Of a DNA stretch of 64,000 nucleotides, positions 4,375 through 50,663 are shown in pieces. The stretch's first letter is position 1; each line of letters opens with the position of its first letter. The translations under genes were made by a program, and so were the position numbers. The notes beneath the pieces are model-generated. The model did not search any database. It was not told the origin of the DNA and saw only the letters and a list, made by a program, of their open reading frames with translations. This stretch comes from a virus, in IMG/VR virus record IMGVR_UViG_3300042539_000280, positions 100,393 to 164,392 of that record. One strand, written 5' to 3'.

Positions 4375-4917
4375 TTAGAGCAATTTCGAAAGGTCGAGAC
4401 CGTCAATGGAGTCCCAGTCACGGTCAACGTTGAAGGACGTGCCGACTTCGCCGGAAGTACCGAACGTTTCCGTCACATCATCAAACTCCCGAACCTTCTT
4501 CTTCGGTGCAGCCTTACGCTTTGCAGCAACGGCCTTTAGCGTCTCAAGGTTCTTTGCCTTGATTGCTGCCTTATCGACAACCTTAGCAGGCGCCTTGACC
4601 TTAGCAACTGCCTTCGGTGCAGCAATTTTAGCCTTAGCAGCAGGCTTAGCAATCTTGCTTTTCGGCGTAGCACCACGAAGATCAGCAGCATTTGCCGGCT
4701 CGGCGATCATTGTATAAGAAACGACCTTGCGGCCATCTTTGTTAGCCTGAATAGTAAAACCATAACGGGTATTCAGGAACGAAACATACTTAGCCGCATA
4801 ATCACCAGTGCCGACATGGGCATTGATAACGTCGGGCGTTACAGTAGCGCCGAGCGGGAACACGGCAAGGGCACGGATTTCAGGACGGACACCATTAGAA
4901 GCAGCAACACGGGGCAT
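4375..4917 (-). CDS. putative DNA-binding protein (winged-helix-like N-terminus plus Ala/Lys-rich histone H1-like linker)
   Basis: AKPAAKAKIAAPKAVAKVKAPAK low-complexity basic tract; own sigma70-like promoter and AAGGAG RBS. Confidence 0.55.
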   Translation of the reverse strand: MPRVAASNGVRPEIRALAVFPLGATVTPDVINAHVGTGDYAAKYVSFLNTRYGFTIQANKDGRKVVSYTMIAEPANAADLRGATPKSKIAKPAAKAKIAAPKAVAKVKAPAKVVDKAAIKAKNLETLKAVAAKRKAAPKKKVREFDDVTETFGTSGEVGTSFNVDRDWDSIDGLDLSKLL

Positions 4918-4948: not shown

Positions 4949-5040
4949 ATTATAGCACATAGGACGGATTAGTCAAGCGAAAAGGTATGTCAACGCCTGC
5001 GACATATTGTCGCACCCTGAATGTAGACGGTTGACATACC
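4949..5040 (-). promoter_or_regulatory. promoter/operator cassette copy 1 (TTGACT-16-TATAAT, extended -10; palindrome TGCGACAtatTGTCGCA)
   Basis: -10 at 4949-4954, -35 at 4971-4976, palindrome 4998-5014, inverted repeat GGTATGTCAAC 4984-4994 / GTTGACATACC 5030-5040. Confidence 0.8.
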
Positions 5041-5046
5041 CTGTTG

Positions 5047-5271
5047 TCATTCACCACCCTCTAGTCTGTTTACATACATCATACGGGACGCACCGCCCGC
5101 ATAATCAAAATCCAAGGACTCGATTATGCCGTTGACCATGTCACGGTCAACCTTGAGACGGGAACGCTCATTAACATATTCTACCACATCGCCAACATAG
5201 TAGGCACCTGCCTCTATAGCATCACCTACCAATTCAACAATATCGGTATAGGCATCAGACATACGGGACAT
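5047..5271 (-). CDS. hypothetical protein
   Basis: ORF with GGAGG RBS. Confidence 0.55.
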   Translation of the reverse strand: MSRMSDAYTDIVELVGDAIEAGAYYVGDVVEYVNERSRLKVDRDMVNGIIESLDFDYAGGASRMMYVNRLEGGE

Positions 5272-5272
5272 A

Positions 5273-5989
5273 TTAGAACCTCCAGAAAGAGTTGATCATA
5301 TTGGTAACATAAACGTCGAGAATTTCCCAAACGTTTTTATTCGACTCAAGGTCCTCTTTCATCTTGCGAACCTTGGCCATCATGCTCATACCATGGGCAG
5401 GATAAGCAACGACCTTGACAGTCTTATCCCAGCAGGCACGGCAGTCGCCGCATTTACCATCACGCTCATATGCACCACACATAAACGCATCCGTCGGTTC
5501 ATCGGCAAACGAAACAACGGTCGAACCATGTTCCTCTGTAAATTCACCGACAATAGACGGAGACGAATAACGCACCGCAGCATTGGGCAGAGTTTTCATA
5601 CGGTCAAGAACCGCACGGATCTTCGGGATAGTATAAGACTTGGTCGGCAGCCAATGCTGCACATGCGGAGTCTTTTGCATCACCAGAAAGATTTTAAAAG
5701 CAAGAGCGGGATGATAAACGTCTCCCGAGTCGAACCAACGGAAAAACTTTTGCTTTGCAAGAGCCAGCACCATATCATCGACCCATTCGGCACGTTTCCA
5801 ATCTTCACGATTTTCTTCACGGACACGTTTTGAGTTTTTGAAACTGTAAGTGCCACCTTTAGCATAGCATCCGGCACAAACGGGCAACGGCTGCTTAGTA
5901 AACGGGTCAATCGATCCAGGGCAGGTCGAACCGGCCTGGAGAGACCACGATTTAGCGGGCATTTTCGACGCCTTGGAGAGATTAATCAT
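5273..5989 (-). CDS. Gp88-like Cys-rich protein
   Basis: SKMP...TCPG...CAGCYA, FRWFDSGD, WLPTK, CGDCRACW. Confidence 0.7.
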   Translation of the reverse strand: MINLSKASKMPAKSWSLQAGSTCPGSIDPFTKQPLPVCAGCYAKGGTYSFKNSKRVREENREDWKRAEWVDDMVLALAKQKFFRWFDSGDVYHPALAFKIFLVMQKTPHVQHWLPTKSYTIPKIRAVLDRMKTLPNAAVRYSSPSIVGEFTEEHGSTVVSFADEPTDAFMCGAYERDGKCGDCRACWDKTVKVVAYPAHGMSMMAKVRKMKEDLESNKNVWEILDVYVTNMINSFWRF

Positions 5990-6022
5990 TTTTGTTCCTT
6001 TTTCAATTTTCATCATACGGTA

Positions 6023-6167
6023 ATAATAGCACAAAGGAACGGTAAAGGCAACAGAAAAGGTATGTAAACAGGTGCGACATGATGACGCACCCTTAGTCTA
6101 TAGTTTTGGTAGTCTTTTGCGATTGTAGACAGATTTCTTGTCTACATACACCTTCGGTCTACATACA
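6023..6167 (-). promoter_or_regulatory. promoter/operator cassette copy 2
   Basis: TTGCCT-17-TATTAT; GGTGCGACATGATGACGCACC at 6071-6091; 33 bp identical to copy 3; GTCTACATACA twice at 6140-6167. Confidence 0.75.
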
Positions 6168-6371
6168 GGAGTCCGGAGTGCCTTGGCCACCGGATTTATG
6201 GTTTTGCGTTTCAATTTAGATAAACCTCCTCTATTTCAAAGTCATCAGAAGAAATTCCTTCATCGATTTCAAATTCTTCTAACATCATATCAATACAGGC
6301 CTGTGCCTGTTCTATTGTCTTAAAGACTCCACACATATCTGGTTCGAGAGAAAAATAAAGATTATAAACTT

Positions 6372-6551
6372 TCATTCTACATAATCCTCCACAATACTAA
6401 AGTCCTCAGGTGAATACATTGCTTCACCTTCAAATTCTTCGGCCAGCATTTCATTGAGATATGCTTCTGCCTTTTCATAGTTTGAATAGATGCCACGAAT
6501 AACTTTACCATCAATCAGGTCATCATACCAAAGAATAAAGATGTTATTCAT
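6372..6551 (-). CDS. small early protein, G[IV][YF]S..E.A family paralog 1
   Basis: 59-aa ORF MNNIFILWYDDLIDGKVIRGIYSNYEKAEAY..., GGAGG RBS; below the ORF-track cutoff. Confidence 0.6.
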   Translation of the reverse strand: MNNIFILWYDDLIDGKVIRGIYSNYEKAEAYLNEMLAEEFEGEAMYSPEDFSIVEDYVE

Positions 6552-6823
6552 TATCTTGCCTCCACAGTATTACCTTGATAAAAGGCATCATTCTTATAGT
6601 GTTCGATATAACGTTTTACTGCTACACGAGAGATACCACGAAAGGTAAGAAAGGTGCCCGCACTAAAGTAAACGGTCAGATTGAACGTATTAACATTAGC
6701 CATTATATTTACTCCTTAGAGAAAGGTAAACACCAAGAACGCCGATTGTATATACGATAACCATCCACTCCGGCACGAAAGCATAAAGCGGATAGCCGTC
6801 AAAGCGGATGGATATTGTCATTA

Positions 6824-7006
6824 TTACGGTCCTTGCCATTCAGCGGCCGGAGCATCTAACTCACGAGCCTCGATACGATAAAACGGTACATCAACAGAAC
6901 GATCCCAGTCCTCAAATGCAGCACGAGCCGCATCCTCAGAACCATACACACCAATCAACCAGTCAGAGTCCGAGAACGGCTCGGCTACCAAAGCATATAC
7001 TCGCAT
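6824..7006 (-). CDS. small early protein, G[IV][YF]S..E.A family paralog 2
   Basis: MRVYALV...LIGVYGSEDAA. Confidence 0.6.
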   Translation of the reverse strand: MRVYALVAEPFSDSDWLIGVYGSEDAARAAFEDWDRSVDVPFYRIEARELDAPAAEWQGP

Positions 7007-7422
7007 TTAGTTCGTCCTATCAATAACAATCCACAGCAAAGTGCCGATAAAGGAAAACGTAGCAACCATACCGAGTGCCACATATTGCATGATTTTATTT
7101 TCGTCCATCATCTAACAATCTCCTTCTCCATAATGTATAACCAGTTACCATCATCGGTTTGTTTACCAAACCGCATGATTGAATATCCGATATTAGATAA
7201 TTCGACCAGTCGTTTGGCGACGAAACGAAAAGAACCAGACAGGATTATTTGGTGTGTCATATGAAAATATCCTCCAATTCGTCCATGTCGTTTATAGTAC
7301 CAGGAACAATCCAATATGAGATATCAGCATCAAGTAACAGATTGCCAAGGTACTGTGTGAAACAATACTCACGAGTGCCACGTTCATCGTAGATAGAATA
7401 AAACACCGTCATATTAGTTCTC

Positions 7423-7695
7423 CTATTCAGCCATCACGGCCTTGAGCAAATCTTCATTCATAACAGTAGCAGCAATAAGGCGCAAGGTCTTTAACTTGCG
7501 GGTTGCTATTGTTACAAGTTCGGGATCACTCAGGCAATCCCGCTTCATTCCCATTTCAGATAATGTGACGGCGAGTTCTTCCATGGGCAATTCCATGTTC
7601 TCACGATATTCTTGAGTATCAAGATTGACAATCGTAGTCATATCAATTCTCCATGCTAGTAAGAGCAATAAGAGCAAACGCAACCGGCGGAACAA
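7423..7695 (-). CDS. hypothetical protein
   Basis: ORF; likely start at the internal MTTIV after GGAGA. Confidence 0.45.
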   Translation of the reverse strand: MFRRLRLLLLLLLAWRIDMTTIVNLDTQEYRENMELPMEELAVTLSEMGMKRDCLSDPELVTIATRKLKTLRLIAATVMNEDLLKAVMAE

Positions 7696-7729
7696 ACACT
7701 ACCATAAAGAGAACGATATCAGTCATTAA

Positions 7730-7945
7730 TTACTCCCAAGGTTTGGCTTCACCAAGATAACAACGTGCCTGTCTAGTACCTTCAGGATTAACTAGATTAA
7801 GAAACGTGTTACCCCATTCACCGATACGGGTTGACTCGGTGATATGAATAATAGTCCAAATTTGACGGCCGGTGCCAATTTTAATCTTGTCACCGATTAC
7901 AGGATCCCATCGTTTTTCATCTTTAAAGCGATTTGACCTTTTCAT
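7730..7945 (-). CDS. hypothetical protein
   Basis: ORF with GGAGG RBS. Confidence 0.55.
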   Translation of the reverse strand: MKRSNRFKDEKRWDPVIGDKIKIGTGRQIWTIIHITESTRIGEWGNTFLNLVNPEGTRQARCYLGEAKPWE

Positions 7946-8105
7946 TATTAATCCTCCAGATTAAGAGTGCCGGGAACGATCCAATAGGACTCGGACGGAT
8001 ATTTGCCGCTATTGTGATTAGCACAATAGTAAGCAACCATCCAATCGTTATCAAAACCATCGGGTTCGAATACCGAAAGAGCATAGATATGACGCATAAA
8101 ATACA

Positions 8106-8285
8106 TTATATTTCCTCTCCACATTGGCCGAATTGATATATTTCGTCCAGTTCAACCTTACGGATATAAACGTCACTGTCTTTCAGAGACAATACATAAT
8201 CACGAGCCTTCACATAACTGGAGAATATGCCCATTAATTGCTCGCCCTCATAAGCGATTGACCATATTACAGCGAAAACTTCCAT
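8106..8285 (-). CDS. small early protein, G[IV][YF]S..[EK].A family paralog 3
   Basis: 59-aa ORF MEVFAVIWSIAYEGEQLMGIFSSYVKARDY... Confidence 0.6.
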   Translation of the reverse strand: MEVFAVIWSIAYEGEQLMGIFSSYVKARDYVLSLKDSDVYIRKVELDEIYQFGQCGEEI

Positions 8286-8486
8286 GATATTAACCTTTCG
8301 TTAGTTTAACCTTAGAAACAGTATAACCCTTCTTCGGGCGTTTCACAGGTTTGGCCACTTTAATTGTACCGCCATTCTCAAAATAGTTAGTGAGGGCGTT
8401 AAGAGTGCCAAGGTCCAGGTTAAAGGACTTTTTAACGAAACGGGCGTTAGACATGATATTTTCCTTTCAATCTCGATTGTTGACGT

Positions 8487-8585
8487 ATCCTAGCACAACG
8501 GAACGGCATTGTCAATGTAAACTGGCACGGAACTGGTGCGACATGATGACGCACCCTTAGTCTATAGAGTCGGTAGAGTGTTGTC
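8487..8585 (-). promoter_or_regulatory. promoter/operator cassette copy 3
   Basis: TTGACA-17-TAGGAT; GGTGCGACATGATGACGCACCCTTAGTCTATAG at 8535-8567. Confidence 0.75.
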
Positions 8586-8587
8586 AT

Positions 8588-8908
8588 TCACCGAACGTCT
8601 GTATTGAGGGCGGGAGAGAGGTCACGGATCAATTCCCGCTCACGGAGGTGAGCCTCGGCCTTGCCTCGAACCACCTCATAATAGCAGACCTCGAACGCCT
8701 CCGGACCGTATTTCCGTATCGCCTTGCATAAGGCCCAGTCCCTGCCTTCGGTAAGGGCTCGGCGGACATGCTTTTGCCAGCGACGGATAACAGACTTGGA
8801 CACGGCTGATTTGTCTACATACGTCACACCGATATACTCTAAACCATTGACGGATAAAGAATATATGACATGCTTACGGTCGGAACGTGATTTGCGCTTT
8901 TTGATCAT
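8588..8908 (-). CDS. stand-alone GIY-YIG nuclease domain protein
   Basis: VIY-x8-YIGVT, R-W-x-x-H, conserved E and N (ERELI...LN). Confidence 0.75.
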   Translation of the reverse strand: MIKKRKSRSDRKHVIYSLSVNGLEYIGVTYVDKSAVSKSVIRRWQKHVRRALTEGRDWALCKAIRKYGPEAFEVCYYEVVRGKAEAHLRERELIRDLSPALNTDVR

Positions 8909-8913
8909 GCTGC

Positions 8914-9037
8914 ATTATAGCACAAGGAACGGAATAGGCAATAAAAAAGGTATGTAAACGACTGCGACAGGATGTCGCACCCTGACCTTGGCCGTTTACA
9001 TACCTATAAATCTACCGGAATAGTAGAGTGTTTACAA
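8914..9037 (-). promoter_or_regulatory. promoter/operator cassette copy 4
   Basis: TTGCCT-16-TATAAT; TGCGACAggaTGTCGCA 8963-8979; 13-bp inverted repeat AGGTATGTAAACG 8948-8960 / CGTTTACATACCT 8993-9005. Confidence 0.8.
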
Positions 9038-49133: not shown

Positions 49134-49211
49134 TGGTCTAGGTGGAGGGATTCGAACCCCCGTTATTCTTCGTCCCAAACGAAGTGCCATACCAGGCTAG
49201 GCGACACCTAG
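49134..49211 (-). tRNA. tRNA-Pro(TGG)
   Basis: CTTCG-TT-TGG-GA-CGAAG. Confidence 0.9.
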
Positions 49212-49218
49212 ATAAAAC

Positions 49219-49292
49219 TGGCGAAGGTACCAAGAGTCGAACTTGGGCTTGCGGTTTTGGAGACCGCCGTGCTACCGTAACACTTTACCAAC
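49219..49292 (-). tRNA. tRNA-Trp(CCA)
   Basis: anticodon CCA; two mismatches in acceptor stem. Confidence 0.75.
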
Positions 49293-49294
49293 AT

Positions 49295-49369
49295 TGGGTG
49301 CGGACCCATGAGTCGAACATGGCTCTCTTGCTTATGAGACAAGAATGGTCACCGGACCACCTGACCGCA
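49295..49369 (-). tRNA. tRNA-CAT (Met/Ile2), atypical
   Basis: CTTGT-CT-CAT-AA-GCAAG; C discriminator. Confidence 0.65.
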
Positions 49370-49376
49370 ATAACTC

Positions 49377-49451
49377 TGGTGCTGGAAGTTGGAATCAAAC
49401 CAACCTTTAAGGCCTTATGAGGACCCTTCGACATCTTGCCGACCTACCAGC
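49377..49451 (-). tRNA. tRNA-CAT (Met/Ile2), atypical
   Basis: GGGTC-CT-CAT-AA-GGCCT; T-loop TTTGATT. Confidence 0.65.
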
Positions 49452-49511
49452 ATATTGATGGGCGGGTGTGGCTGACACCCTTTAAATGCACCCGCTAGAT
49501 GCTACCCATAT

Positions 49512-49588
49512 TGGCGTTCCCGGAAGGACTCAAACCCTCAACCTCTGGTTTCGTAGACCAGCGTTCTATTCAGTTGAACTACGGAAAC
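49512..49588 (-). tRNA. tRNA-Arg(ACG)
   Basis: CTGGT-CT-ACG-AA-ACCAG. Confidence 0.88.
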
Positions 49589-49597
49589 ATACTAAAC

Positions 49598-49671
49598 TGG
49601 AGCGGGTAGGTGGTACTGACCCACCTTCTACACGTTGGCAACGTGTCATAATACCTTTATACTATACCCGC
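49598..49671 (-). tRNA. tRNA-Gly(GCC)
   Basis: anticodon GCC, U73; atypical T-loop GTCAGTA. Confidence 0.8.
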
Positions 49672-49675
49672 ATAT

Positions 49676-49751
49676 TGGAGGATCCGGTCGGGCTCGAACC
49701 GACAACCGTAGGATTAAAAGTCCTCTGCACCACCTATTGTGCTACGGATCC
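49676..49751 (-). tRNA. tRNA-Lys(TTT)
   Basis: anticodon TTT. Confidence 0.88.
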
Positions 49752-49756
49752 ATAAT

Positions 49757-49832
49757 TGGTGAACCTGGAAGGAATCGAACCTTCAACACACGGATTAAGA
49801 GTCCGCTACTCTACCAATTGAGTTACAGGTCC
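49757..49832 (-). tRNA. tRNA-Lys(CTT)
   Basis: anticodon CTT. Confidence 0.9.
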
Positions 49833-49837
49833 ATAAT

Positions 49838-49912
49838 TGGTGACCCCTAGCGGAATCGAACCGCTCTACCAAGATTGAAAGTCTTGTGTCCTAACCGATA
49901 GACGAAGGGGCC
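49838..49912 (-). tRNA. tRNA-Glu(TTC)
   Basis: CAAGA-CT-TTC-AA-TCTTG. Confidence 0.9.
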
Positions 49913-49916
49913 GTAT

Positions 49917-49991
49917 TGGCTGGAATGGCAGGATTCGAACCTGCGACCAAGTGATTAACAGTCACCTGCGCTACCGCTGCGCCACATTCCA
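49917..49991 (-). tRNA. tRNA-Asn(GTT)
   Basis: anticodon GTT, U1:A72, G73. Confidence 0.9.
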
Positions 49992-50335: not shown

Positions 50336-50436
50336 ACTATATAGGCGCCAGATGGCAAAGTCAAGAACTTTTTTCACTTTTTTCTGCGACATTTTGACGC
50401 ACCCTTAGTCTATTGATTAGATAGACTGTTTACATT
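50336..50436 (-). promoter_or_regulatory. promoter/operator cassette copy 5
   Basis: TTGACT-17-TATAGT; TGCGACAtttTGACGCACCCTTAGTCTAT at 50385-50413. Confidence 0.75.
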
Positions 50437-50438
50437 CG

Positions 50439-50514
50439 TGGTAGAGGTGGAGGGATTCGAACCCCCGGTAGAACCGTTATGAGCGGCTGGCCTTAACCAC
50501 TTGGCTACACCTCT
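50439..50514 (-). tRNA. tRNA-CAT (Met/Ile2)
   Basis: AGCCG-CT-CAT-AA-CGGTT, canonical cloverleaf. Confidence 0.88.
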
Positions 50515-50520
50515 ATGTAA

Positions 50521-50597
50521 TGGCGGTCCCAATAGGATTCGAACCTATAACCTGCCGCTTAGAAGGCGGCTGCACTATCCTGTTGTGCTATGGAACC
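50521..50597 (-). tRNA. tRNA-Arg(TCT)
   Basis: GCCGC-CT-TCT-AA-GCGGC; TTGACA-17-TATACT promoter just upstream. Confidence 0.9.
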
Positions 50598-50663
50598 AAT
50601 CTTTCCTGATTGTCTGATTAGTATATAGGCACCGGATCATAATGTCAAGCATTATTTTAGGAA

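Follow-up and report, generated by a model that had tools for sequence, protein, structure and literature searches.

Five promoter cassettes and the genes behind them

The stretch of DNA analyzed here (hereafter the window) comprises the last 64 kb of a 164,392-bp viral genome from IMG/VR (record IMGVR_UViG_3300042539_000280, positions 100,393 to 164,392). The genome belongs to a T4-like phage, with a G+C content of 41% and nearly all phage genes on the minus strand, and a search of sequencing runs matched the stretch in lake-water metagenomes of several studies, with DNA runs and no RNA run among the matches listed. Within the window, five sigma70-type promoters are each preceded by a 17-bp palindrome that reads TGCGACA-N3-TG(T/A)CGCA on the plus strand. 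On the minus strand, the order is GGG, box, linker, and -35. Four copies lie within a 4-kb hyperplastic region, and the fifth lies inside the tRNA array. A sequence-only reading of the window had described these elements as mobile promoter stem-loop cassettes carrying a box of the RegA/PrrA type. The boxes and promoters are as follows.

4998..5014, minus strand: RegA-type box 1, a perfect palindrome with the minus-strand spacer ATA, preceded by GGG
4949..4976, minus strand: promoter 1, TTGACT-16-TGcTATAAT, 21 bp downstream of box 1
6073..6089, minus strand: RegA-type box 2, TGCGTCA-TCA-TGTCGCA, preceded by TAGACTAAGGG
6023..6051, minus strand: promoter 2, TTGCCT-17-TGcTATTAT, 21 bp downstream of box 2
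8537..8553, minus strand: RegA-type box 3, TGCGTCA-TCA-TGTCGCA, preceded by TAGACTAAGGG
8487..8515, minus strand: promoter 3, TTGACA-17-TGcTAGGAT, 21 bp downstream of box 3
8963..8979, minus strand: RegA-type box 4, a perfect palindrome with the minus-strand spacer TCC, preceded by GGG
8914..8941, minus strand: promoter 4, TTGCCT-16-TGcTATAAT, 21 bp downstream of box 4
50385..50401, minus strand: RegA-type box 5, TGCGTCA-AAA-TGTCGCA, preceded by TAGACTAAGGG and an AGTCTAT/ATAGACT hairpin
50336..50364, minus strand: promoter 5, TTGACT-17-TATAGT, with a 20-bp linker that is an A-tract resembling an UP element (whole element 50336..50384)

A pattern search of the window and of the whole genome recovered exactly five occurrences of GGG-TGCG(A/T)CA-N3-TGTCGCA, all on the minus strand, at the places where the sequence-only reading had put them. 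The reversed control pattern gave none, and the observed count was reached by 0 of 100 shuffles. The word that the same reading had seen in copies 2, 3, and 5 (CCCTTAGTCTAT on the plus strand, TAGACTAAGGG on the minus strand) is present only at these three copies. All five promoters were called independently by a promoter scan, with 9-11 of 12 matches and a TG before the -10 element in four of them. The linkers between box and -35 measure 21, 21, 21, 21, and 20 bp in copies 1 to 5, confirming the claimed distance of 20-21 bp, and the box centre lies at about -64 relative to the start site. Boxes occur at only five of approximately 30 strong sigma70-like promoters in the genome.

Promoter 1 leads into the gene at 4375-4917, which encodes a protein of 180 amino acids (aa) termed P0001, and promoter 2 into a Gp88-family gene (5273-5989) together with a 74-aa open reading frame (ORF; 5047-5271). 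Promoter 3 precedes the ORF at 8290-8454, behind which about a dozen small ORFs follow in a row as far as 6211, and promoter 4 precedes an ORF with a GIY-YIG domain whose product is 62-72% identical in four relatives. As a correction, copy 5 lies downstream of tRNA-Met/Arg (50439-50597). Its promoter leads into a 61-65-aa ORF (50125-50310/50322) and then the tRNA block at 49134-49991. A near-perfect promoter without a box (TTGACA-17-TATACT; 50620-50648, minus strand) is located upstream of tRNA-Arg/Met; thus, the tRNA array is split between box-free and box-bearing promoters. Two of the genes recur in the sections below.

4375..4917, minus strand: P0001, 180 aa, with a winged-helix-like N-terminal domain (predicted), a Lys/Ala-rich basic middle, and an acidic tail
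8588..8908, minus strand: GIY-YIG-domain ORF, 106 aa, between cassettes 3 and 4 and behind promoter 4

Likeness to binding sites of the RegA family

To compare the palindrome with known sites, we used 33 15-mers from Rhodobacter capsulatus RegA chromatin immunoprecipitation sequencing (Table 2 of PMC5359404), whose columns were counted by hand. The count gave G C G (A12/T10/C9) C A N3 (T/C) G (T/A/G) C G C, and at each defined position, the phage boxes have the base that is most frequent in this count. Even the alternation between A and T at position 4 of the phage boxes is found among real RegA sites. The boxes also equal the core of the best site of SpdR, the RegA homologue of Caulobacter crescentus (CTGCGAC-N5-GTCGCAG; PMC4830024), and putative RegR boxes of Bradyrhizobium japonicum start with TGCGACA or TGCGTCA (PMC4064962). 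The consensus for RegA/PrrA/RegR/ActR, which the sequence-only reading had given, is therefore borne out by published sites. The helix-turn-helix (HTH) motifs of RegA and PrrA are 100% identical.

The likeness concerns both sequence, GCG(A/T)CA-N3-TG(T/A)CGC (TGCGAC-N5-GTCGCA) being the same in the two settings, and position, because the upstream activator position of about -64 here is close to that of the RegR element, from which RegR activates fixR-nifA P2 at about -67. The settings differ in the quality and density of the sites: those of hosts are rare and for the most part degenerate, and those of the phage are perfect and approximately 1000 times denser (about 30 boxes/Mb in the phage versus about 0.03/Mb in 301 alphaproteobacterial genomes, as we estimate from listed sizes). 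Moreover, the putative sites described here lie in the genome of a lytic phage rather than in a cellular regulon.

The rRNA and tRNA promoters of Escherichia coli combine a Fis site with an UP element, and the Fis-type HTH protein is bound about 65-70 bp upstream. Copy 5 is similar in having an A/T-rich, UP-like tract between site and -35, before a tRNA block. However, the regulator and the signal would be others, and a contact with the C-terminal domain of the polymerase alpha subunit would be hypothetical here.

Outside phages, the full palindrome GGGTGCGACA-N3-TGTCGCACCC was found in 42 bacterial contigs, compared with about 0.5 expected by chance according to our estimate. At 14 of these 42 loci, all from Beta- or Gammaproteobacteria, it adjoins genes for a RegB-like kinase, a 185-aa regulator with Response_reg and HTH_8 domains, and/or the copper chaperones PCuAC and SCO1/SenC. 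We take this arrangement to resemble regB / senC-regA of Rhodobacter. In Gallionella, a Competibacter-like bacterium, Steroidobacter, Bordetella, and Rhodocyclaceae, an extended palindrome is located between the regBA-like operon and PCuAC-SenC (e.g., 2853-2875 in contig L170 and 5343-5365 in contig L152). At several promoters of this set, 22-23 bp separate the end of the palindrome from a -10-like hexamer, which is a class II-like position.

Conservation and phasing in other phages

Complete genomes of relatives (165-174 kb) contain 4-7 boxes each, compared with 0-1 for the control, and the boxes are clustered in the orthologous region with one more near the tRNAs. Upstream of orthologous genes, whose proteins are 54-70% identical, the arms of the palindrome are invariant and the 3-bp spacer varies. 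Among 15 variant boxes at phased positions, none showed a two-sided compensatory change, and a recurring A-to-T substitution would place a U.U mismatch in an RNA stem.

The distance between box and promoter was counted for 91 boxes of relatives with a promoter within 60 bp, and 66 of them lie 0, 10-11, or 20-21 bp from the -35. The 10-bp and the 20/21-bp distances each comprise at least five unrelated linker classes, and a scan anchored on promoters instead of boxes yielded the same peaks. The sequence-only reading had named a lack of conserved spacing in related phages as grounds for rejecting it; the spacing is conserved or helically quantised, and the reading was not refuted on this point. 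Steps of one helical turn are as would be required by a protein that touches RNA polymerase from one face of the DNA. Taken together, the quantised distances, the invariant arms, the lack of compensatory changes, and the clustered conservation favor a DNA site over an RNA stem.

The motif is not confined to close relatives. At least 119 IMG/VR contigs carry it, compared with 6 for the reversed control, in many unrelated contexts. The Pelagibacter phage HTVC008M has three boxes with one mismatch (0 in the control and about 0.05 expected by our calculation), one of which abuts a -35, and phage phiCbK has one near-consensus box (80486-80502), 11 bp from a TTGACA-17-TATGGT promoter. Transcription from the promoter behind the phiCbK box would cover about 300 bases that have no annotation and stop at an annotated terminator (NC_019405, 80486-80835), and these bases may represent a small RNA or a small ORF. 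Our literature search found no paper describing RegA-type boxes in phages, and the half-site words matched primers only.

Stem-loops around the boxes

The palindrome can form a hairpin in all five copies, and copies 1, 2, and 4 additionally have a long outer stem and a U-run. The outer elements are as follows.

4984..5040, minus strand: outer inverted repeat of copy 1, GGTATGTCAAC / GTTGACATACC around box 1, then TTTT, forming a long hairpin
6059..6166, minus strand: outer stem of copy 2, in which GTTTACATACC followed by TTTT (6059-6069) pairs with GTATGTAGAC boxes via G-U
8949..9004, minus strand: outer inverted repeat of copy 4, GGTATGTAAAC / GTTTACATACC around box 4, then TTTTTT

The outer arms of copies 1 and 4 share the form GGTATGT(C/A)AAC / GTT(G/T)ACATACC with a T-run after them, and the compensatory change that the sequence-only reading had described between the two copies is present, with GTTGACATACC at 4984/5030 in copy 1 and GTTTACATACC at 8949/8994 in copy 4. 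In copy 2, the GTATGTAGAC boxes at 6140-6149 and 6157-6166 lie upstream of box 2, and the predicted long hairpin includes an inner TGTAGACA/TGTCTACA hairpin. The enclosed loops measure 40-90 nt and contain inner hairpins. Copy 4 has an 11-bp outer stem followed by U6, and copies 1 and 2 have U4.

These folds raise the possibility that the palindrome acts only as RNA, as the apical hairpin of a terminator or stability element, with the identity of the copies arising from cassette duplication and gene conversion. Such a role would fit the strong predicted fold of copy 4 (-32.3 kcal/mol, z = -7.4) and the long hairpins and U-runs of copies 1 and 2. It would also fit the 'ATACC+T-run' cassettes across relatives, in which the variable position of the outer arms pairs (C:G or A:T) in 10 of 10 cases, and the relatives with a 10-bp linker, where GGGG...CCC is followed by T5 in the shape of a textbook terminator. 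However, outer stem and U-run are both absent from copies 3 and 5, and none of the five cassettes was called by the terminator scan. The covariation of the outer arms is not matched within the palindrome, where the U.U mismatch recurs and it is the loop that varies. A terminator would have no need of quantised spacing to the -35 across unrelated linkers, and bacterial regBA promoters carry the same palindrome. We therefore regard an exclusively RNA-level role as unlikely. A DNA site and a terminator are nevertheless compatible, and the two roles do not exclude each other.

The GT(T/C)(T/G)ACAT boxes that the sequence-only reading had seen scattered nearby are indeed concentrated here, with 11 of the 25 in the genome at 4987-8994. 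In the cassette region (4985-8994), boxes of the form GT(T/C)(T/G)ACAT(AC) occur in both orientations, and each contains a -35-like TTGACA or TTTACA. Because GTTKACA boxes in relatives also occur as direct repeats around the palindrome, or singly, they appear to be more than stem arms. A reading of the GTTTACAT boxes as the cyanobacterial HLR1 element bound by RpaB was dropped, as the boxes are single or inverted with no 10-bp direct repeats and the transfer-messenger RNA (tmRNA) of the phage is of the alpha type. For the palindrome itself, readings as a CRISPR repeat, parS, a LexA or NtrC site, or an AhdI site were weighed and dropped for lack of fit.

Cassette character and gene shuffling

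Promoter early stem-loops (PeSLs) are composite terminator/promoter elements of T4-type phages that occupy hyperplastic regions and indicate where genes are shuffled (PMC4122927). They are known from RB49/phi1, PST/T4, and nt-1/KVP40 (Arbiol 2010, PMC2839356; Comeau 2014, PMC4122927). Like PeSLs, the elements described here place a stem-loop just upstream of a sigma70-type early promoter, and they occur in many copies in hyperplastic regions of small ORFs, beside insertions, deletions, or gene replacements between close relatives. Unlike them, they have a fixed stem core. The known stems are simple G/C or A/T runs that vary by phage group, with no protein site ascribed to them, whereas the core here is a 17-bp palindrome equal to the consensus site of a host regulator, helically phased and common to many unrelated uncultured phages.

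The region from 4.3 to 9.7 kb has borders syntenic with four relatives, and the small ORFs between the cassettes differ, many of them having no counterpart. Contigs from four lake metagenomes skip or replace gene-sized pieces at 5226-6060, 7107-7257, 7726-8104, 8288-8491, and 8527-8619, indicating that the region is hyperplastic in natural populations. Together with the stem-loop before each promoter and the clustering of small ORFs, this variation in gene content supports the claim that the cassettes are mobile elements of the PeSL type. Our results thus support a view of the five elements as portable early-promoter cassettes of the PeSL kind, with what appears to be a host response-regulator site as their core, and hence as a new PeSL variant.

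One could suppose that the repeats serve chiefly as signals for recombination or homing, through cassette mobility or the neighboring GIY-YIG protein, and that any effect on transcription is secondary. Cassettes 3 and 4 flank the GIY-YIG ORF, three homology breaks in the lake contigs (6060, 8491, and 8527) fall at or beside cassette elements, and the PeSL papers propose cassette-mediated shuffling, which would agree with the differing gene content between cassettes. However, homologous recombination needs any repeat and not this palindrome, the indels at 7107-7257 and 7726-8104 have no cassette at their ends, and neither the match to RegA sites nor the phasing relative to the -35 would be explained. 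Recombination or homing as the chief function therefore seems highly improbable.

The protein that may bind the boxes

A gene for a Fis-type HTH protein was not found in the phage genome, which makes a regulator of the host the simplest binder. Regarding the host, the phage carries a permuted tmRNA of the alphaproteobacterial type (RF01849, 98 bits), which points to an alphaproteobacterium. Megablast of the region against cultured phages gave no match, and because the closest cultured DNA polymerases are those of cyanophages, at 47% identity, relatives give no inference about the host.

Alternatively, a dimeric protein encoded by the phage could recognize the palindrome and/or the GTT(G/T)ACAT boxes and thereby time the early units, with P0001 as the candidate. 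The N-terminal 70 residues of P0001 are predicted to form three helices and a beta hairpin (predicted local distance difference test score 70-80), followed by a disordered middle and an acidic, conserved C-terminus. Uncultured phages encode 430 homologues of P0001, which corresponds to no Pfam family, and the protein family is conserved beside a box in four relatives. MarR- and ArsR-type winged-helix regulators are its top fold matches in Foldseek, but none is significant (E 0.19 or worse); the Atlas gave weak HTH_36/HTH_39 leads, and sequence search found no solved relative. The confinement of GTTKACA boxes in both orientations to the cassette region would also suit a phage factor. However, nothing ties P0001 to the sequence of the palindrome, which occurs in many unrelated phage contexts and at bacterial regBA promoters where P0001 is not encoded. 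In addition, near-consensus boxes are present in HTVC008M and phiCbK, although no homologue of P0001 was found among cultured phages. The link of the palindrome to regBA loci and this lack of homologues point to a host factor, so that a phage-encoded reader strikes us as distinctly unlikely. P0001 may be considered a candidate binder of the GTTKACA boxes or, less likely, of the palindrome.

From these comparisons, we judge it reasonably likely that a RegA-family regulator of the host binds the five boxes, and the interpretation of the sequence-only reading, PeSL cassettes with a RegA/PrrA-type box, is supported. Several observations weigh against such a regulator. Across the 301 alphaproteobacterial genomes, perfect boxes numbered 27 compared with 14 for the control, only about twice as many, and none of the 20 alphaproteobacterial box loci examined adjoins regBA. 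The low count is in line with the rarity of SpdR sites noted in the literature and lends no extra support. About 10 of the 42 bacterial matches were in contigs of Clostridia or Bacteroidales, where RegA is not expected. In contigs of Clostridia metagenome-assembled genomes (L153, L167, L189, and L193), the palindrome recurs as an intergenic hairpin, in many cases immediately ahead of a ribosome-binding site and, in L153, within 69-bp tandem repeats. In Bacteroidales (L161 and L188), it is flanked by an A-run and a T-run, an arrangement that would also suit a purely RNA role. Among phages, a few boxes lie 25-26 bp from the -35 and are thus out of phase, and no box was found in Cr30 or phiM12, T4-like phages of Alphaproteobacteria. 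Finally, because the cassette promoters are already near consensus and have extended -10 elements, an activator may not be needed.

If a host regulator does bind, the core of the stem-loop would be an optimal site for a response regulator of the RegA family (RegA/PrrA/RegR/ActR/SpdR), which consists of a receiver domain and a Fis-type HTH. A dimer would occupy TGCG(A/T)CA-N3-TGTCGCA, centred about 64 bp upstream of the start site or, in relatives, at about -54 or -44, always on the same face of the DNA. From there, it would touch RNA polymerase and raise the transcription of a subset of early units, namely those for the winged-helix-like basic protein, the Gp88-family protein, small accessory ORFs, the small GIY-YIG protein, and one tRNA block. 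The box would have a second role in copies 1, 2, and 4, where it forms the tip of a long hairpin with a U-run that could end transcripts arriving from upstream. The repeated cassettes might also serve as recombination points at which genes are shuffled.

Early genes of lytic phages are usually thought to be constitutive and to be expressed from host-type promoters. The RegB/RegA system responds to the redox state of the respiratory chain, and stationary phase is when SpdR acts; therefore, the phage would couple these genes to the energy state of the host. Judging from the sites and their placement, the phage probably ties some of its early genes to host respiratory state. If this is true, the physiological state of the host is sensed at the first step of infection by a large group of phages from lakes and the sea, and the stem-loops of PeSLs gain a second, protein-binding role. 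A bolder version, which we offer as a rather doubtful conjecture, is that many unrelated environmental phages carry perfect-consensus RegA 'super-sites' phased with early promoters as a widespread means of reading the respiratory or redox state of the host, and that replicated copies could soak up RegA. Titration of host RegA by replicated phage sites would then reprogram host respiration and carbon use during infection.

Start of the GIY-YIG gene

The ORF behind promoter 4 begins unusually close to its promoter. The -10 hexamer and the ATG are 5 nt apart, and no Shine-Dalgarno sequence precedes the ATG (8906-8919, minus strand), so that the GIY-YIG mRNA should be leaderless. Relatives share this layout, with the -10 hexamer, 6 nt, and the ATG in succession.

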